DNA from: a virus | DNA length: 64,000 nucleotides | Direction: 5' to 3' (one strand) | Virus record (IMG/VR): IMGVR_UViG_3300032046_000015 | Coordinates: 1-64,000 of that record | Part shown: piece by piece, positions 1,313 to 64,000 of the stretch | How the letters are laid out: each line of letters begins with the position of its first letter | Position numbering within the stretch: position 1 is the stretch's first letter | The notes under the pieces: model-generated | What the model saw: the letters and a program-made list of their open reading frames with translations, nothing else | Told to the model about the DNA's origin: nothing | Databases searched by the model: none | Program-made: the position numbers and the translations under genes

Positions 1313-2098
1313 TCACTCTCCAAATATCTTTGTTGATACCAAAGCTGGCGGTGGAACAGGAAATGTGGACGCTGGTGGCCCAGATGATCCCAAACCAGGA
1401 GTGGTACCTGTATGCGTGTGTGTATCGAACATTGCCTTGACAGCACCTAAGAATGTCAACAACATAGTGCCAAGGACAAACGGTTGTACAGAGGATATGG
1501 AACCAAAATGAATCATGGGTGCTTCTATTGTGGCCAGAGTGTCTGACTTTAGGCTGGCCTGTAGCTTCCCACTTGCTTCTAATTTGTTGGTGGCAGAAGC
1601 CAAAATATCCCTGGCAGCGTCCACCATCATATCTCTCATCGCTTTCCAATTTACATCCCCATCCTTATTAAGTTCAAATCCATGTCCTTTACTGTGGAAT
1701 AACTGGACAAGGAATTTGCCTGGGGAATCATCAAACATAAATAACACAGACTTGAATTTGAATCCTTTGCGTTTGGGATAATTTGTTTTGAACTCCTCTG
1801 GGATATTATTGACATCAGAATAGAGTGAACACTTGTACACAAGGTATTCTTCATTGATATAATCTATGCCTTCAACAGACTCAACTTCAACTGTAGTATC
1901 AACATCAGGGACAAAGAACAGTCCATAACCATCTGGCCCTGCCAATGGAAATGATGGCCTGACAGGAATAGGATATTCATCATTTTCATTCCCAGTCAAC
2001 GTCAGGCATTTGATCATGATCTCTCCTTGTGTAAATGCCTGACCGTCTGGGCCTGTCTGATTATTGGATACAACTCCTATGTGTGTTTGCTTGGCCAT
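1313..2098 (-). CDS. baseplate central spike (gpV/gp5-like)
   Basis: OB-fold-like N-terminus (GYGLFFVPDVDTTVEVE) and C-terminal HTHTG metal-binding apex motif. Confidence 0.8.
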   Translation of the reverse strand: MAKQTHIGVVSNNQTGPDGQAFTQGEIMIKCLTLTGNENDEYPIPVRPSFPLAGPDGYGLFFVPDVDTTVEVESVEGIDYINEEYLVYKCSLYSDVNNIPEEFKTNYPKRKGFKFKSVLFMFDDSPGKFLVQLFHSKGHGFELNKDGDVNWKAMRDMMVDAARDILASATNKLEASGKLQASLKSDTLATIEAPMIHFGSISSVQPFVLGTMLLTFLGAVKAMFDTHTHTGTTPGLGSSGPPASTFPVPPPALVSTKIFGE

Positions 2099-2102
2099 TC
2101 AC

Positions 2103-3410
2103 TCAATCCCATGGATTCTTTTTTTTCTTTTTGCGCTTGCGTTTTGGTTTTACAGATAGTGCTTTTGACTTGGCACCCTCTTTTGGTATAGTTGTTGGCA
2201 CTAATGTCGCTGTGAAAGCAGTCGTGTATGCCTCTTTGGCTATTATGTGTCTAACAGCCCTGAAGTAATACTTGCCACTGAATCTGTTTCCAATACCTTT
2301 CAACTCATGTACCTGCATAGGCTTTATTGTTTCCACACCTATGGTTGAGCCTTTGGCTATTAAAAAAGCATCACGCTTCAATGCCAATATCCTATTGGCC
2401 ATTGCTCTGGCTTCTGGTTCTGAATTGACTGTGGACGATGCTGTGACATATATGTTTGTTCCAAACTGTCCCAGCGCAACAGAATCTCCATGGACTATCT
2501 GCTTGGTGATAGCGTTGCCTGCACCTGATCCACCTTCCCATTTATACTTTTCACCTGCCTGCGTTGTCATGATTCTAAACACAATAACACGGTTGTTCTT
2601 AGCATCCCAACCGTACACATTGAATTGAGCAGCTTGACCAGTCAAAGAAAATTCAGGTTCAAGACTGAATAAAGTTGTCTTGTCGCCATTGTCATAATAT
2701 AACACATAAGATGGCTTCTTGTTAGGTTGCGGTGGCCCCCAAAATAGCACATCTTTTTTCTTGTCTGGATCATATGTGACATAAAATTCATAAGCATTAA
2801 GTGAGGCCAATTCCTTTATGAAATCCCAATCACTGACATCTGGTTTTAATGTAATGCCCTTCTTGGGAGCAACTGTGCGTGGCGCTGCCACCATGCTTGT
2901 GTCGAAGCCATATTGTGAACCGATTGATTTAATGACATCTTGATAATTCTTATTGCGCCATTGGTTCTTGTCTCTCTTGGGTGGCACTGGATTCAACATC
3001 TCTTGGGCTGCTCCTAATGCCTGGACTTTCAACACAGCTGCGCCATCCTTTGGAAAATCAGGCAACCAATTTTGAATCTTGCCACGGCAAAGAAAAGCCA
3101 GGTTATCAGCATATCCTGCCATCACTTCTACCACGTTGCCTTCCGCAAACATAGTGAGATCAGATATGCGGTCAACTGGTGGTGGTGTTGAACCTTTGGG
3201 ATAGAATTGAGTTTTCAAGTTCAAGTTGGCTATATCAAACTTAATGCTATCCACCATGCCTATTTCTAACTCAACCTCAACATTGCTAATAAGTGCCAAC
3301 ATATCTTGCGATAATTCCTTGCCATTGATCTTGATCATAAAATTTGGAGCCAAATCATCGAATGAAAATGTTGGTTCCAACGGCTTGTTTTTTATCACAT
3401 CATTTGGCAT
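2103..3410 (-). CDS. baseplate hub / late control D-like protein
   Basis: SDWDFIKELA and GIGNRFSGKYYFRAVRH motifs typical of gpD/VgrG-like hubs; gene order. Confidence 0.8.
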   Translation of the reverse strand: MPNDVIKNKPLEPTFSFDDLAPNFMIKINGKELSQDMLALISNVEVELEIGMVDSIKFDIANLNLKTQFYPKGSTPPPVDRISDLTMFAEGNVVEVMAGYADNLAFLCRGKIQNWLPDFPKDGAAVLKVQALGAAQEMLNPVPPKRDKNQWRNKNYQDVIKSIGSQYGFDTSMVAAPRTVAPKKGITLKPDVSDWDFIKELASLNAYEFYVTYDPDKKKDVLFWGPPQPNKKPSYVLYYDNGDKTTLFSLEPEFSLTGQAAQFNVYGWDAKNNRVIVFRIMTTQAGEKYKWEGGSGAGNAITKQIVHGDSVALGQFGTNIYVTASSTVNSEPEARAMANRILALKRDAFLIAKGSTIGVETIKPMQVHELKGIGNRFSGKYYFRAVRHIIAKEAYTTAFTATLVPTTIPKEGAKSKALSVKPKRKRKKKKKNPWD

Positions 3411-3413
3411 AAC

Positions 3414-4244
3414 TTACCTGTATGAATAGTTGATTGCCTTTCCACCCCTGGTTTCAAACAATTTTTTAATAGGTGATGCTCCACCAGATATTTGTGCGGA
3501 CACTGGTGCTACTGCTTTGGCAATCTGGGAGTGTGTAGCTGGTAACAACTTCAACTCCTCTCCTGCTTCCAACTCCTCTCCAACTTTGAAAGTGTTAACA
3601 CTTCTGATGTGTATTCCTTTGAGTGGATCACCATACACATCTTTGGCTACACTTTCAAACGTGTCACCTTGTTTGGCTTTTCTGTACAGAGTGCTTTGTT
3701 CAGGGGTGCCTGGTCTGCTCTCTTGAATTCCTTCTATTGAAAATGGAATGTACTCTGTAAGAGACACAGCAAACTCAATTGATCTGAAGGTGCCATCATT
3801 GCGCACTTCAGATACCTTGACACCGCCAACAGAGTTTACAACACACTGCATTGATATTGGCCCTGCTTCAAAGAAACACACTGGTGGCCTTTTTAAGTCA
3901 TCATCCCTTTCAGTCAACGCCATCATAGCATAAAATCGTTCATTCAGGTCATCCAAGAAATGCCTGGCAAAGAGCAAGGCATTGAAAGAGATGGTTGTCA
4001 GTTTACCTGAAGAATATTGAAGAATTGGCTTGCCACGATTAAGTGTTGTATTCTCACCATACTCTGCTGACTTGTTGATGGTCATGCTTTCTGGAAAGAA
4101 ATCACCAAAAATGTTATAATCGTGATCTACATCGGTGATTGACCAAGGCCAAGTGCTGCCAAATATACCACCAATGATTGGTAAGTTAGGCAGTCTTGGT
4201 GTGCCTATTCTGAATGATCCTAGATTGGAGATTGGGCCAGCCAT
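3414..4244 (-). CDS. tail tube initiator with C-terminal LysM-like domain
   Basis: PILQYSSG and RPPVCFF motifs; KQGDTFESVAKDVYGDP LysM/tail-X-like motif; follows the tape measure gene. Confidence 0.7.
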   Translation of the reverse strand: MAGPISNLGSFRIGTPRLPNLPIIGGIFGSTWPWSITDVDHDYNIFGDFFPESMTINKSAEYGENTTLNRGKPILQYSSGKLTTISFNALLFARHFLDDLNERFYAMMALTERDDDLKRPPVCFFEAGPISMQCVVNSVGGVKVSEVRNDGTFRSIEFAVSLTEYIPFSIEGIQESRPGTPEQSTLYRKAKQGDTFESVAKDVYGDPLKGIHIRSVNTFKVGEELEAGEELKLLPATHSQIAKAVAPVSAQISGGASPIKKLFETRGGKAINYSYR

Positions 4245-4255
4245 TGTTGTTTACC

Positions 4256-6802
4256 TCATGGAGCAGATGACAGTGTCACATACTCTCTTAACTCTCCTGG
4301 CGATACAGATGTTGAACGCATCTTGCGATCAGCCCTGAACCTTTCAACTGCTTGCGCAATCACACGTCCATCCACATGTAGATTGCTGTGTATTACTACA
4401 ACAGACTCAGAACCACCAACATTTATGGAAGGAACAACGGTTGGGGCTGCTGTGATCTTTGCTGGTGTTGGGCCTGGTGAAACAGGAAGTGGGCCCAACT
4501 GTCCGGCACCTGGTACTAGACTCATAATGGCTTTAGCATTTTCAGCAATCCATTGCAGCTTGTTTACTATCCATGTAACCTTGTCAGCCACAAATTGTAT
4601 AGGTGCTTTGATAGCGTTGATCACCCCTTCTATAATGGGGCCAGCAGTTTGCCATGCCGTTGTAAGCACTCCTGATACTGTACCAGCCAACTCTGTAACG
4701 AATCCAACAACACTTTGGATGCCACTACTGATAGCATTCCATACACCCGTTGCCACCCCTTTCACAGTGTTGAATGCTCCCACCAAGGCACCCCATATAG
4801 TGGTGGCAACGCTGGTTATGACTTGTCCCAACAACATCCAGCCTTGTATAACCATTTTAACTACACCAGCAACCACCACAAATCCCACAACAACTCTGGT
4901 GGTTAACCAAATGGCCAGTTGGGCTAAATTGGCTATGAGCCAAGCAACCACTTGGACAATTGCCCCAATAACTATCACAATACCTGCGCCCCATGATTTG
5001 GCACTGCCACCTGAGCCTTTGAAGAACACACCGAACACCTGTTTCAACATAGCCACGTTTTTCTTGAGTGTGTTCCATACAGGCAGGAATTGGCTGAGTA
5101 TTGGTTTCCATACCAAGCTGAATCCCTCAACCATGCCAGTGAAAAATCCTTTGAAGAAATTGTAAACACCTTTGGCAACCCTGATGATGGTACCAAAAGT
5201 GCTCTCACCCTCTTTTCTAAACAGCAATATAGCAACTGTCAATAAGCCAATAACTACCACAATAGGCCAGAACATTGCGCTCAACACAGTAAGTGCTCCA
5301 GCGACTATGTTGAACAGAGCAGTGGCAACCGTCACAATGAATGCGATGGCAGCACCGATTGGCACTATCACAGCAGTTGCTCCTGCCAAAACTCCTATGA
5401 TGATCGTGGCCCATTTGGCTATGCTTTGCATTGTGGTACCACCAGCATATTGACTAAGCATTTCACCAAAGGATTTCACAGCTGCTTTGGCACCTTCCCA
5501 TAATCCACTTAGAACACCGATGCCCTGCTTCATTCCCTTAGCCACAGCCTGGGCTGTTGGGCCAATCTTTGCCCAGCGTTCATCCAGTTTCCTTGACTCC
5601 TCTTCAGTGCGTTTAATCGGATAATTGAGAATCTGGAGTGCCACAGCTAGATCAGACATGAATTTGGCTGCTGCTCTGAATCCTGTTGATAATACTGGCA
5701 GCAATGTTGTACCCACTTCAAGTCCAAAAGCTGCCACACCGCTCTTGAACAACTTGATCGATGTGTTGAAAAGATTCATGCGTTCAGCAGACATCTTGGC
5801 CATGTTGCTTTCTGCGTCCTTATATTGCTGTATCAAGTCTGCTACATATTCTGCGCCAGCACTCTTCAACAATTCAAAACCCTTGATGCCTTGTTGTCCG
5901 AACAACTGAAGCATCATCATGTTTTTCTTTGTTGGATCTTTGATGGTGTCCAACGCCTTGCTAATATCTGATACAAGAGCAGGAAGTGGTTTCAATTGCG
6001 TTTGGCCATTGGCTCCCACTTCTGTCAGAGTGATGTTGAAATGCTTGAGGAATTGCTGCGACAATTTGGATGGCTGGGATAGTTTAGTCAACATGGTGTT
6101 CAACATTCTACCACCCATTGTTCCTTTGAAGCCAGCATTCGCAAACACAGTCAACACAGCAGCTGTCTCTTCCAAACTCATCTTCAAGGCTGTAGCCTCA
6201 AATGTACTGGCCTTGAATGCTTGAGTCATCTGCCGCATCTCCTCTGCGTTGGCATCTCCAGCCAATGTTAACACAGCAATAGCGTGACCTGCGTTCTGGG
6301 CATCTATGTCTAACACCTTGAGATAAGATGATATGACTTGGGCTGACTCTCCCACTTCCATGCCTGACAATGAAGCAGCTTTCATAACAGCAGGCATTAG
6401 TGCCATCGTTTGTGTGACGTCAAAACCTGCTCCAAGCAATTCTTGCATTCCTTGTGCTGCTTGTTCACCTGAAAATTTAGTTGTAGCACCAAACTCTCTG
6501 GCTTGTTGCTCCAACATGCGTAGCTGGGGTGCGGTGGCACCTATAGCCAACCCTCTCACTTTGGCCATCGCAGCTTCAAAATTACCTGCTTGATAAGCCA
6601 TGACACCCAAGCCAGCAGCGAACACACCGCCTATGGTTAGCAAAGACTTGAAACCAGTTGCCATCATAGACATGCCCTTACTGGCAGCATCAAATCTTCC
6701 ACTCATATATGTGGCCGCTGCGCTGGCCTTGTTCATGCCAGCAATAGCAGAGTCACCCGTGAATTTTAATACTGCGCCTAAACCAAGTGTTTGGAATGCC
6801 AT
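4256..6802 (-). CDS. tail tape measure protein (TP901 family core)
   Basis: 848 aa, Ala/Gly-rich; FEAAMAKV..AREFGATTKFS..GFKGTMGG core; hydrophobic segments and Trp-periodic repeats. Confidence 0.92.
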   Translation of the reverse strand: MAFQTLGLGAVLKFTGDSAIAGMNKASAAATYMSGRFDAASKGMSMMATGFKSLLTIGGVFAAGLGVMAYQAGNFEAAMAKVRGLAIGATAPQLRMLEQQAREFGATTKFSGEQAAQGMQELLGAGFDVTQTMALMPAVMKAASLSGMEVGESAQVISSYLKVLDIDAQNAGHAIAVLTLAGDANAEEMRQMTQAFKASTFEATALKMSLEETAAVLTVFANAGFKGTMGGRMLNTMLTKLSQPSKLSQQFLKHFNITLTEVGANGQTQLKPLPALVSDISKALDTIKDPTKKNMMMLQLFGQQGIKGFELLKSAGAEYVADLIQQYKDAESNMAKMSAERMNLFNTSIKLFKSGVAAFGLEVGTTLLPVLSTGFRAAAKFMSDLAVALQILNYPIKRTEEESRKLDERWAKIGPTAQAVAKGMKQGIGVLSGLWEGAKAAVKSFGEMLSQYAGGTTMQSIAKWATIIIGVLAGATAVIVPIGAAIAFIVTVATALFNIVAGALTVLSAMFWPIVVVIGLLTVAILLFRKEGESTFGTIIRVAKGVYNFFKGFFTGMVEGFSLVWKPILSQFLPVWNTLKKNVAMLKQVFGVFFKGSGGSAKSWGAGIVIVIGAIVQVVAWLIANLAQLAIWLTTRVVVGFVVVAGVVKMVIQGWMLLGQVITSVATTIWGALVGAFNTVKGVATGVWNAISSGIQSVVGFVTELAGTVSGVLTTAWQTAGPIIEGVINAIKAPIQFVADKVTWIVNKLQWIAENAKAIMSLVPGAGQLGPLPVSPGPTPAKITAAPTVVPSINVGGSESVVVIHSNLHVDGRVIAQAVERFRADRKMRSTSVSPGELREYVTLSSAP

Positions 6803-6811
6803 ATATTTACA

Positions 6812-6964
6812 TCACTTCCTGGTGGCAGCTTTGATAGCTTCAACCTCATCATTCTTTTGCTTGCTCACTCTTTGCATGAACCATTCTCTCTCTGATCTTG
6901 TTAACCTACACACATCGCTCCAAGACATTCGCAGATGGTACATCAAATGGAATGCTTGTTCCAT
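6812..6964 (-). CDS. tail assembly chaperone C-terminal ORF (probable -1 frameshift partner)
   Basis: 50-aa ORF MEQAFHLMYHLRMSWSDVCRLTRSEREWF..., read by hand; its frame is open back to the T TTT TTC site in the upstream gene. Confidence 0.7.
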   Translation of the reverse strand: MEQAFHLMYHLRMSWSDVCRLTRSEREWFMQRVSKQKNDEVEAIKAATRK

Positions 6965-6978
6965 CAATTCCTTGTAGG

Positions 6979-7794
6979 TTAAGGAATTGAGGAATGTGAG
7001 AAAAAATTGTCATAATTCCAATCCACTCCTTGCTCATACTTTCTGTTGCAATTCTCGCACTTGGTCTCAACAGACATATTGAGCCCACCGTTCATGTCGT
7101 TTATTGCCTTGGCAATCAGCTCAATGTCCACCTTGTACAGAGAATCCAGGATGTCGTCAGTGGCTATGAAGTGGTCACGCTGTAATCCTGTAACACCAAC
7201 AATGCTGTCTCTTAATATGTTTGTCTTGACAGCACCATCGTTGGACAGACTTTTAACAGTTGAACCTTCCATGGCCATCCAAGTGCTTGGCCTTATTGTG
7301 ATCTCTTCATGGGTTGTGCCACTCACAATTATACCTTTTTTCAAGATAATTGTTCTGTGTAAGTCCATGGGTGACTTGACTTCCTGGTCATTTGAGTCCA
7401 CTTCCAGTTCATCTAATGATATGACAATTTTGCTTTTATTGCCACACATAGGGCAGGTGGACTGTAAGGATACATCAGCCCCTAATGCCTCACGCCTCAG
7501 CCACACGTACATGTACATAACATCCGATATGAACATCTGGCTGACCATGAGTCTGCGTTGGGCTTGATTCTTATCTTGGAAGGACATACCACCTATAGAG
7601 ATGGTCATGGCACCTAACACTTCAGAAATGAATGGACAAATGAATTGGTAGTCACCCGTCTCACGGATTTTGCCAACCATTCTCTCCTCTTCCATGCGCC
7701 ATGGTTTGTGTGTGAATTGCTTATGTAGTGTGCCGTCAGGAGCAAATAGCCCAATAGGCAACACATTTTGTAAGTCTTTCAGCGTCTGTTTCAT
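6979..7794 (-). CDS. tail assembly chaperone / T4 gp26-like hub protein with two CxxC motifs
   Basis: Lies between tube and tape measure genes; CPMC and CENC motifs; GGAGG RBS before MKQTL. Confidence 0.65.
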   Translation of the reverse strand: MKQTLKDLQNVLPIGLFAPDGTLHKQFTHKPWRMEEERMVGKIRETGDYQFICPFISEVLGAMTISIGGMSFQDKNQAQRRLMVSQMFISDVMYMYVWLRREALGADVSLQSTCPMCGNKSKIVISLDELEVDSNDQEVKSPMDLHRTIILKKGIIVSGTTHEEITIRPSTWMAMEGSTVKSLSNDGAVKTNILRDSIVGVTGLQRDHFIATDDILDSLYKVDIELIAKAINDMNGGLNMSVETKCENCNRKYEQGVDWNYDNFFSHSSIP

Positions 7795-10659: not shown

Positions 10660-11889
10660 TTAGTTGGTGCTCTCCAACGTCAGTACAAAATCCTTTACTA
10701 TCTTGTGTTCAGTTGGTGGCGCCAAGTAATAGGGAACATTTCTGATTTCTATCTCAAATGATCCGCTGTAAATGTCATCCAAGTTTGGCCTATATCCTGC
10801 CACATAAGGTGACACGATAACCAAATCAAGCATTTCATCCGTATCAAGCCAACGCAATTGCGGTATGGCTTTAACACCAGCATAGATTGCGTTGGCCAAA
10901 CGTTGTTGATCTACCAACAAATTAGTGAGAACAACGATGTTTGCCCTGAATGTTAAATTATCTGGGCCTGACATCTTATAACCTGAGCTGGCCCCAGGTG
11001 CGACAAACGTGTCCCCTTCAAATGACTGAGAACGTTCTACAACCAAAATGTCTTCCAAGGTGACAGCAGGAAGTGAAGCCAATTCTGTGTAATCCTGCTG
11101 TGTGGCTATTGCTCCAATGGGATTATATTCCACTATCACTTTCAACTGCTTGCCTGCTGGCACGCTGGTGGCAAGTGTTATGACTTTAGTGCCTGGATTG
11201 TAAGAGGATAAGATGTCTGTAAACTCCTCTGGATCATCCGATACATTGAACACTCCTCTTACATCTGTGATATTCAACTTGGCCATATCATAGTTGTTCA
11301 AGTCTATTGTAGTGGTTATGGCTGCTGTTTCCATGATGAAATCTGCTGGAGCAGTTATGCTTTGTAATGCTGGCATCAATGTTTTTATCAGCCAACTCTC
11401 TTGTGTATCTAAATACATATAAAGCAATATCTTAATTCCAGAAATGGATGGAGTGATTTGTGTATCGTTTGTTCTGAGATTGATGATGAATCCCAAAGCA
11501 TGTTCTGCCCCAACAGCACTCTTGAATGTATCAATGTGATCATTAATTTCAAAAACAGTGTTCCAATCATTTGCGCCAGCAACAACCCATTGTGTTCCGT
11601 TATGGAAATACTCTTGTACACCATCATACAACTTGTAGTATATGTATGTCCCAGTGGGCTCATCTGACAGTGGTTGAATTGCCAACCATTGCTTGTGAGC
11701 CTTGGGATTAGTCATAGGCACTTTTGCCCATATATTTGTGGCAACCGGAAACAATCCCAAATGATCTGCCTTCAACTTGATCGCTCCATCCTGCGGATCA
11801 AGCCTGATCTTTGTGTCGTCATTAAACACAATCTGTTCTCTCATAGTTTCAGGCCATGACAGAATCTTTATGTATCTTTGCCAGTCCAT
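10660..11889 (-). CDS. putative tail terminator / neck structural protein
   Basis: 409-aa ORF immediately upstream of the sheath; C-terminal LPAVTLED region resembles tail terminators. Confidence 0.5.
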   Translation of the reverse strand: MDWQRYIKILSWPETMREQIVFNDDTKIRLDPQDGAIKLKADHLGLFPVATNIWAKVPMTNPKAHKQWLAIQPLSDEPTGTYIYYKLYDGVQEYFHNGTQWVVAGANDWNTVFEINDHIDTFKSAVGAEHALGFIINLRTNDTQITPSISGIKILLYMYLDTQESWLIKTLMPALQSITAPADFIMETAAITTTIDLNNYDMAKLNITDVRGVFNVSDDPEEFTDILSSYNPGTKVITLATSVPAGKQLKVIVEYNPIGAIATQQDYTELASLPAVTLEDILVVERSQSFEGDTFVAPGASSGYKMSGPDNLTFRANIVVLTNLLVDQQRLANAIYAGVKAIPQLRWLDTDEMLDLVIVSPYVAGYRPNLDDIYSGSFEIEIRNVPYYLAPPTEHKIVKDFVLTLESTN

Positions 11890-33279: not shown

Positions 33280-33973
33280 TCAATACCTTTTGAACTTGAG
33301 ACTTGGATTGAAGTGTTCGTGTACACATCCTTGATCGCAACAACCTTCTGTACACAGTGGAACATCCTCATCCTTGCCTTTAATCCCAAGCATTTCTTTG
33401 GCTATGGCCTTGATCTCATCGATGGTAAAGATGGTGAAGTGTTGCATCCCTGCTTCCTGTATTGCCATGTCGCCACCCTCTCCACGGTCAACTACAGATA
33501 GAACAGCGACAGGCTTGTTGCCTTCTGCGTGCTTCTTCAGTGCGTCTGCTGCTCGCAGGACAGATGAAGCTGTAGTTATCACATCTTCTACCAACACCAC
33601 ATTATCCTTGGGATAGACTGTACCTTCAATCAACTTGCCTGTGCCATGTTCCTTCTGTTGTTTCCGCACAATGAACCCACGCAAAGGATAACTGTAATGC
33701 CCAGCCAATTGTAGCAGAGCACCGATGATTGGATCAGCACCCAGTGTCAATCCGCCCACAGCTTCAACATGAAGTTGTCCTATCAACGGCATCATCATGA
33801 GTGCTATACAATGTGCCCCTTCTGATCGCAACGTGACCAAGCGCAAGTCAATGTAGTAATCGGATTCACGACCTGACGACAGAGTGAAACTTGCCTTCTC
33901 TGTAGGAATGGGCAACAATCAACTTGCCCAATTGCTGCTTGGCAAAGTTGTTATGGTTGATTTTGTTTGCCAT
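33280..33973 (-). CDS. pyrE: orotate phosphoribosyltransferase, interrupted by a +1 frameshift near 33888
   Basis: FTLSSGRESDYYID, RKQQKEHGTGKLIEG and VEDVITT PRPP motifs; the native-looking N-terminus (..AHSYREGK) lies in another frame starting at 33973. Confidence 0.85.
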
Positions 33974-36340: not shown

Positions 36341-36414
36341 TCAGGGTGAGTGGATTTGAACCACCGACCACTTGCGCCCAAGGCAAGTGCGCTACCAGGC
36401 TGCGCCACACCCTG
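36341..36414 (-). tRNA. tRNA-Pro(TGG), CCA not encoded
   Basis: Cloverleaf: acceptor CAGGGTG/CACCCTG, D-loop AGCCTGGTA, anticodon stem CTTGC/GCAAG with loop CT-TGG-GC, T-loop GGTTCAAATCC. Confidence 0.95.
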
Positions 36415-63203: not shown

Positions 63204-63581
63204 TTACTTTCTGGCTGCGTTGACTATGTTGTTGATTGCTTCATTGATCTTGCTTACAGCAGATGATAAATCTTTGTATGTGGCGAATAGTGTGGCACGC
63301 TCTGGTGTAATGTCATGAACCTGATTCTTGGGTATGCGAACATAGTCACTTTTATCCACTAATTTCCACACGTCCGTGATCTTTGTTCCCTGTGTTGTTT
63401 CTATGTGTCCAATCAGACTGTATTTGTCCTCAAGTGTTTTTGGTCCAATTGCGAACACATACTCTGGTGTCTCTTTAACATACACCATCTCTATGATTGC
63501 CGGTTGCCAATCGCCATACCTTCTGTATGACACCCAATAAAATTTGTCTCCTCTGTTCATTTCCTTGTACCATCCTTTCAT
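63204..63581 (-). CDS. hypothetical protein
   Basis: ORF directly downstream of the ribozyme. Confidence 0.6.
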   Translation of the reverse strand: MKGWYKEMNRGDKFYWVSYRRYGDWQPAIIEMVYVKETPEYVFAIGPKTLEDKYSLIGHIETTQGTKITDVWKLVDKSDYVRIPKNQVHDITPERATLFATYKDLSSAVSKINEAINNIVNAARK

Positions 63582-63595
63582 GTGTTAAATTCTGG

Positions 63596-63667
63596 TGACT
63601 TGCCATCATCAGGCCAACGGTGGTCAACCATTGACGACATCCGCTGTGTGTAGCGGATGTTTCGGCA
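63596..63667 (-). ncRNA. type II hammerhead ribozyme
   Basis: UGCC-GAAAC-AUCCGCU/AGCGGAU-GUC-GUCAAUGGU/ACCGUUGGC-CUGAUGA-U-GGCA; loop UGAC with a downstream GUCA pseudoknot. Confidence 0.9.
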
Positions 63668-63673
63668 TGCTTG

Positions 63674-63877
63674 TTAACAAATTCCATTCACTTCACCATG
63701 CTCCATCTTGCGTTGGAATTTGATTTTGGGGTGATACCTTTTGGCTGTCTCTTTTATCCTCTTTAATCGTGTGTCCTTGAAACAGTCAATCAACTCCTCT
63801 CCATCAAACACTTCAACCCTGTATCCTTCCAACTCGCCTGTGTTCTGCCAAACCACTCTTACAATCACTGCTCTCAT
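63674..63877 (-). CDS. hypothetical protein
   Basis: MRAVIVR start with an AAGGA RBS. Confidence 0.5.
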   Translation of the reverse strand: MRAVIVRVVWQNTGELEGYRVEVFDGEELIDCFKDTRLKRIKETAKRYHPKIKFQRKMEHGEVNGIC

Positions 63878-64000
63878 TGGACATCCTTTCATATGTGATT
63901 TCAGAATACACTCTGATTGTTTCATATCTTGATGCGAATCCAAGTGGCCCTTTTTGTGGATAATTCACAGCCAAACCCCAGTGCCTTATTTTTGTCACTT

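Follow-up and report, generated by a model that had tools for sequence, protein, structure and literature searches.

A probable type II hammerhead ribozyme, one of six paralogous intergenic copies in an uncultured phage

Genomic setting of the ribozyme-bearing block

The stretch of DNA analyzed here (the window, 64,000 nucleotides) covers positions 1-64000 of a virus record that is complete at 83,016 bp, has terminal repeats, and originates from a sediment metagenome. The minus strand carries nearly all long ORFs of this 83-kb phage genome, and both ORFs that flank the locus of interest lie on it. The upstream ORF (63674..63943) encodes 89 amino acids and terminates with a stop codon at 63676-63674, while the downstream ORF (63204..63581) reaches 125 amino acids when counted from its first ATG. 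Given the analogous leader-to-AUG layout at the junctions of the other copies described below, translation of the downstream ORF probably initiates at an ATG in frame at 63560, which would give an ORF of ~120 amino acids. A family search with the two flanking ORFs returned no match above threshold for either, which leaves the label of early-type genes in the initial annotation tentative. Separating the stop codon of the 89-aa ORF from the next ORF is a 92-nt gap, occupied on the coding strand by a hammerhead motif that we call copy A (HH-A), just as an initial annotation of this DNA had placed it. Past the hammerhead lies a leader motif, UUUAACACAUGAAAGGA (63573..63589, minus strand), which contains the Shine-Dalgarno sequence of the next gene and has near-identical counterparts after copies D, C, B, and F. 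By blastn, no GenBank phage matched 63000-64000, and contigs from three sediment runs yielded the source contig alone, with neither coverage of the ribozyme nor variants in it from the other two runs. At gathering thresholds, a tRNA gene (36341-36414, minus strand, 64.5 bits) is the sole Rfam match in the window.

The block that bears copy A and its paralogues encodes small ORFs without family matches, a CobS-like MoxR ATPase, a CobT-like VWA protein, a methyltransferase, and a 635-aa protein located downstream of copy E that gives a weak match to sigma-70 region 2. Replication genes, namely those for a UvsW-like helicase, a DnaB-like helicase, and a primase-like protein, are found upstream of the block. 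Between the primase-like gene and the first ribozyme is a 680-nt gap devoid of long ORFs (genome 68845-69525; L002:5845-6525), which may hold the promoter of the ribozyme block. Three promoter-like sites were seen on the coding strand of this gap, in a scan that did not rise above shuffled expectation. The coding strand of the block yielded no convincing terminators. The TTGAC sequences of loop I were also considered as -35 promoter boxes and rejected, as they lack a suitably spaced -10-like hexamer and were not picked up by the promoter scan. As a separate observation, the CobS-like MoxR ATPase (genome 68171-66984; L002:3984-5171, minus strand) has an N-terminal zinc-finger-like segment at residues 6-44 with weak ROS/MucR and PHD matches, and the Cys/His positions of this segment are invariant in 20 homologues.

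Architecture of copy A

The complete type II hammerhead, which begins with the 5' strand of stem II and ends with the pseudoknot partner, spans 63596..63667 on the minus strand, as delineated by reading the sequence and by a full-length match to the Rfam family RF02276. In 5' to 3' order, the elements are UGCC, GAA, stem III, the GUC triplet, stem I, CUGAUGA, U63605, GGCA, a single A, and GUCA. The UGCC of stem II (63664..63667; positions 11.4-11.1) lies 6 nt beyond the upstream stop codon and pairs with GGCA (63601..63604; positions 10.1-10.4). It is followed by the core residues G12, A13, and A14 (63661..63663) and then by stem III, a 9-bp hairpin (63637..63660) with the loop ACACAC, in which ACAUCCGCU (63660-63652) pairs with AGCGGAUGU (63645-63637) and the first pair is A15.1-U16.1. 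The GUC triplet (63638-63636) ends in C17 at 63636, and cleavage is predicted 3' of this residue, between 63636 and 63635. Stem I (63613..63635) is likewise a 9-bp hairpin, formed by 63635-63627 and 63621-63613 with two G-U pairs, and closes the loop UGACC (63622-63626). The core sequence CUGAUGA (C3-A9; 63606..63612), near-invariant in the family, is separated from the 3' strand of stem II by an extra U at 63605, between A9 and G10.1, which is an insertion relative to RF02276. One A beyond stem II, the putative pseudoknot partner GUCA (63596..63599) complements the UGAC of loop I (63626-63623) and sits where the RF02276 consensus has its tail.

[quoted passage not shown] The catalytic core of copy A comprises C3 U4 G5 A6 N7 G8 A9, G12 A13 A14, the A15.1-U16.1 pair, and an H17 that is not G, together with the inserted U after A9. 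Most of this anatomy had been described in the initial annotation, and our minus-strand read bears out its coordinates, including the cut between 63636 and 63635, its assignment of stem II (UGCC/GGCA), GAAAC, stem III, GUC, the 9-bp stem I, and CUGAUGA, and the complementarity that it noted between the UGAC of loop I and the downstream GUCA, which also covaries in the family (see below). Its description of a full core is accurate in that all catalytic elements are present; the extra U63605 between CUGAUGA and stem II had been overlooked. RNA folding agrees with this architecture. The 92-nt gap folds with z = -3.4 relative to shuffled sequences, the minimum free energy and centroid folds each contain stems III and I, also within a 181-nt context, and stem II is present in the centroid fold.

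Covariance model scores and expectation by chance

A search with the Rfam type II model, which the initial annotation had suggested as a check, recovers copy A over its full length and leaves it under the curated threshold. The RF02276 (Hammerhead_II) match extends over 63594-63667 with a score of 28.7 bits (E = 4e-4 in 261 nt and 0.032 in 20 kb), against a gathering cut-off of 37 bits. In the corresponding alignment, an insertion follows CUGAUGA, and the 3' tail is aligned at the pseudoknot partner of the model. Sister copy B scores 35.7 bits with the same model. As a measure of chance expectation, we used a strict descriptor that specifies the canonical core, at least 5 bp in stem III, at least 6 bp in stem I, at least 3 bp in stem II, and zero or one inserted base. 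This descriptor finds two matches in the real 83-kb genome, copies A and B, compared with a mean of 0.005 per genome among 200 simulated genomes of the same dinucleotide content.

Six paralogues in a 6.6-kb block

We built a covariance model from copy A, self-aligned with a hand-written structure, and rebuilt it from the resulting alignment; MAFFT alignments of the copies misplaced the stems and were not used. Six copies are recovered in the genome at 58-99 bits, and the next best match scores 19.9 bits. That seventh candidate (33501-33584, plus strand) was rejected, as it lacks GAAAC and CUGANGA and runs antisense to genes. All six copies fall within 62064-68676 (6.6 kb), and every one lies on the minus (coding) strand in a gene junction. 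In transcriptional order, the own covariance model places copy D at genome 68676-68587, copy C at 68278-68199 (L002:5199-5278), copy B at 66984-66906 (L002:3906-3984), copy F at 64830-64744 (L002:1744-1830), copy A at 63670-63590, and copy E at 62146-62064. Copy A scores 115 and 98.6 bits with the first and rebuilt models, respectively, and copy E, which separates the methyltransferase gene from the 635-aa sigma-like gene, scores 46.4 and 72.6 bits. The sequence of stem I differs among all six copies, yet pairing is retained in each. After five of the six copies, all except E, a near-identical leader of the form AAUAACACAUGAAAGGA is found, with an AUG 7-12 nt beyond. Since this leader carries a Shine-Dalgarno sequence, the five ribozymes in effect form one unit with the ribosome-binding site of whichever gene follows.

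The copies vary in how closely they adhere to the consensus core. Copies A and B have the cleanest cores of the six. The cleavage triplet of copy D is GUA. Copy E, which lacks the common leader motif, has the core CUGACAGA, with one extra base between A6 and G8. In copy F, position 4 is C (CCGAUGA). The same CCGAUGA occurs in an unrelated copy from another viral contig (L086:5736-5832); both retain all stems and a compensated pseudoknot, and the two constitute an independent recurrence of a core change that is usually considered harmful. Copies B and C have an exact 37-nt stretch in common, beginning at CUGACGA, taking in the pseudoknot tail, and reaching into the leader, while their 5' halves differ. 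In copy C, stem II is broken, with AGCC as the 5' strand facing GAUA as the 3' strand; AGCC could pair only with a GGUU located five bases beyond. These features suggest a recombinant origin for copy C, which may cleave poorly.

Relatives in other viral contigs

To search outside this genome, we used a pattern covering the 3' two-thirds of the motif, with TGTC, TTGAC, CTGAYGA, and GTCA as fixed letters. The pattern produced 15 matches in 14 viral contigs, and our own model confirms 17 hammerheads in eight of those contigs. Nearly all of these outside relatives occupy gaps between small ORFs on the respective coding strand. Some are densely arrayed: contig L086 contains seven in 4.5 kb by our own model (3161-7635, plus strand), with an eighth found by Rfam at 4180-4276, and contig L088 contains four in 2.4 kb between small ORFs (1402-3795, minus strand). 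In many of the hammerheads in these two contigs, the UAG stop codon of the upstream ORF is contained within the stem II 5' strand (UAGUC-GAAAC). Four outside relatives surpass the Rfam gathering cut-off. Among those above it, the hammerheads of L093 and L096 (41.4 and 41 bits) have the extra U and, as in copy A (UGCC/GGCA), a GCC/GGC stem II core, along with the same loop. That these two pass the cut-off with the extra U of copy A ties the subfamily to the curated Rfam family. A mixed ribozyme array was also observed on an IMG/VR contig: in L090, two pistol ribozymes (11046-11116 and 11448-11517, minus strand; 66.4 and 62 bits, above the Rfam cut-off) lie just upstream of a hammerhead of the copy A subfamily on the same strand.

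A tblastn search with the 11 proteins of the operon gave no matches in the other hammerhead-bearing loci, which agrees with a published remark that the genes flanked by such ribozymes are not constant. Loci related by gene content were sought through the CobS-like protein, whose closest homologues have 59% identity. A search with the single protein found none; an alignment of 20 CobS homologues led to 80 IMG/VR loci with up to 48% identity. None of these 80 loci has a match to our own hammerhead model near the gene, and the three closest also lack an Rfam ribozyme match. An exact 18-mer from stem III was found in 10 metagenome loci, none with a hammerhead, and these were set aside as chance matches.

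Covariation and core conservation

The six copies from this genome and the 17 outside relatives provided 23 distinct sequences for covariation analysis. Across this set, 93.7% of stem cells hold a standard pair, compared with 60.6% in shuffled controls and 29-45% when strands are slid, a margin that remains large even though the alignment was fitted to the structure by the model and hence favors pairing. Double changes are seen in 21 of 22 pairs, including all four of stem II, eight of nine in stem III, and all nine of stem I. Outside the stems, G12, A13, U16.1, C3, G5, and A6 are present in 23/23 sequences, A14, G8, and A9 in 22/23, and U4 in 21/23, with the proviso that conservation of core letters is partly built in for the pattern-seeded matches and is free of this bias for the six in-genome copies and ten extra matches. 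Position H17 is C in 22/23 sequences and A in the remaining one. The extra U between A9 and stem II recurs in 7/23 sequences whose stems are otherwise unrelated.

The pseudoknot follows the same trend. Complementarity of at least 4 bp between loop I and the tail is present in 21/23 family members, with compensatory variants such as UUGAUU/AAUCAA in copy F and UGGU/ACCA, UAGCC/GGCUA, and UGAGU/ACUCA in L086 and L088. The 4-bp pseudoknot of copy A taken alone is not significant relative to shuffled tails (p about 0.13).

Proposed function and alternative explanations

In our view, HH-A very probably works as a self-cleaving type II hammerhead and belongs to a set of six paralogous copies that occupy intergenic positions on the sense strand; cleavage itself, its rate, and its consequences for expression are predictions from sequence. 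Cutting of polycistronic RNA is the natural consequence of an intergenic, sense-strand position, and the transcript would most likely be severed between the 89-aa and ~120-aa ORFs. In the proposed mechanism, the block would be transcribed as a single RNA, and each ribozyme would fold once ~75 nt had been made and would cut after position 17. Stems III and I would form first, whereupon the strands of stem II would close the three-way junction, and pairing of the loop I UGAC with GUCA would keep stem I next to stem II. The 2'-OH of C63636 would then attack its own phosphate. The upstream RNA, carrying the 89-aa cistron, would end in the 9-bp stem III hairpin with a 2',3'-cyclic phosphate, and the downstream RNA would start with a 5'-OH at G63635 and the stem I hairpin, with the ribosome-binding site ~25 nt further on. 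In bacteria, hairpin, cyclic-phosphate, and 5'-OH ends should impede exonucleases as well as decay that depends on the 5' end. The net effect would be to convert a long transcript into gene-sized messages whose stability and translation are uncoupled, such that neighboring genes could be expressed at different levels.

The best-surviving alternative is that the copies are structured repeats derived from a hammerhead that do not cleave, or do so too slowly to matter, and are kept as a stabilizing pair of hairpins, as a protein-binding or RNase site, or as part of the leader. The extra U63605 in the core could be taken in this sense, as could the changes in sister copies that are expected to weaken catalysis (CUGACAGA in E, CCGAUGA in F, and the broken stem II in C) and the fusion of every copy but E to a conserved leader with a Shine-Dalgarno motif. 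Non-functional copies have also been considered for clustered hammerheads, and an insertion after A6 was reported to give weak activity (Perreault 2011, PMC3088659). In copy A, however, the catalytic nucleotides are all canonical, and its only deviation is of a type reported as compatible with activity (PMC3705267). The extra U is moreover found with unrelated stems across the family, including in two members above the Rfam cut-off, and a plain hairpin would not be expected to keep the unpaired G12, A13, A14, C3-A9, and H17 across divergent copies. We regard this explanation as unlikely for copy A, while giving it more weight than those that follow.

A second alternative holds that the repeats act primarily at the DNA level, as points of recombination or cassette exchange through which accessory genes are reshuffled among phages, and that the ribozyme fold is secondary. 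The exact 37-nt 3' half common to copies B and C, joined to different 5' halves, suggests recombination between copies; in addition, members of this ribozyme subfamily are found in contigs where the flanking proteins lack detectable homology to this operon, and phages related through CobS are without the ribozyme. Recombination between repeats is, however, the expected by-product of having six similar copies, and the compensatory changes, which include G-U pairs, together with the strict coding-strand orientation point to selection on RNA. A primarily DNA-level role is therefore quite improbable in our estimation. Chance resemblance to a short, degenerate motif, for which one could cite the Rfam score below gathering and the sub-threshold RF02276 matches in 11 of 14 control genomes, is vanishingly improbable and effectively refuted by the simulations (0.005 matches per genome versus two observed) and by the covariation of the six paralogues with the 17 outside relatives.

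If HH-A and its paralogues are self-cleaving ribozymes, as we favor, they could conceivably do more than cut, although we hold this to be a long shot. One version invokes RtcB-type ligation of the released RNAs into circles or new joins: the predicted 5'-OH and 2',3'-cyclic-phosphate ends are those that a host RtcB-type ligase requires, which makes circularization or re-joining of cistrons conceivable. A phage-encoded RtcB or RNA ligase was searched for and not found. In another version, the terminating ribosome would gate folding, such that cleavage reports translation of the upstream ORF; the short distance between the upstream stop and the 5' strand of stem II is what makes this conceivable.

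For this uncultured phage, the analysis adds a well-supported ribozyme annotation and indicates that its accessory block, with CobS-like, CobT-like, methyltransferase, sigma-like, and small-ORF genes, is probably expressed from a self-cutting transcript. With its naturally recurring extra U after A9, the subfamily would also offer a convenient series of phage hammerheads for testing this core variant. Clustered phage hammerheads have been known since 2011, and copy A opens no new question in this respect; we view it as real but ordinary.

Comparison with known hammerhead ribozymes

Type II hammerheads with a pseudoknot between loop I and the 3' tail are common in bacteria, and the pseudoknot is present in most type II members (Perreault 2011, PMC3088659). 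Copy A resembles the type II family represented by RF02276 (PMC3088659) in the order of its elements, in its short and open stem II, in a 4-bp pseudoknot that begins one base past stem II, and in its location between phage genes. It differs in the extra U after A9, in its longer stem III (9 bp), and in its score of 28.7 bits, which lies below the threshold of 37. The letters of the pseudoknot also diverge, being UGAC/GUCA in copy A and a UGG-type loop with a GCC-type tail in the Rfam consensus.

The closest precedent for the core insertion comes from the plus-strand hammerhead of chrysanthemum chlorotic mottle viroid, in which A9 and G10.1 are separated by an extra A, A10 (De la Pena and Flores 2001, reviewed in PMC3705267). 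According to that review, replacing A10 with U raised the trans-cleaving rate 3-4-fold, and C or G was harmful (PMC3705267). By this precedent, the extra U of copy A would be a deviation of a kind compatible with activity. The extra nucleotide occupies an identical core position in both ribozymes. The viroid hammerhead is nevertheless of type III, depends on loop-loop contacts, and serves rolling-circle replication, whereas copy A has a U at this position, is of type II, and resides in a phage mRNA.

With regard to genomic organization, clustered hammerheads are known to flank prophage genes, and the clusters that were tested cleaved in vitro and in vivo (PMC3088659). Perreault 2011 proposed a role in uncoupled expression and did not detect circular or spliced products (PMC3088659); that study also considered that some clustered hammerheads were perhaps non-functional and found low activity upon insertion after A6. 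A later review still calls the purpose of such hammerheads undefined (PMC6765202). The block described here shares several features with the prophage clusters in Figure 3 of Perreault 2011, among them the cleaving triples of A. tumefaciens and C. scindens: several ribozymes fall within a few kilobases, they lie on the coding strand with one per junction, and the flanked genes vary. This phage is distinguished by having six copies in 6.6 kb, five of which are fused to a common leader and Shine-Dalgarno motif, by three copies with a non-consensus core or stem II, and by ribozymes that flank CobS-like and CobT-like genes.
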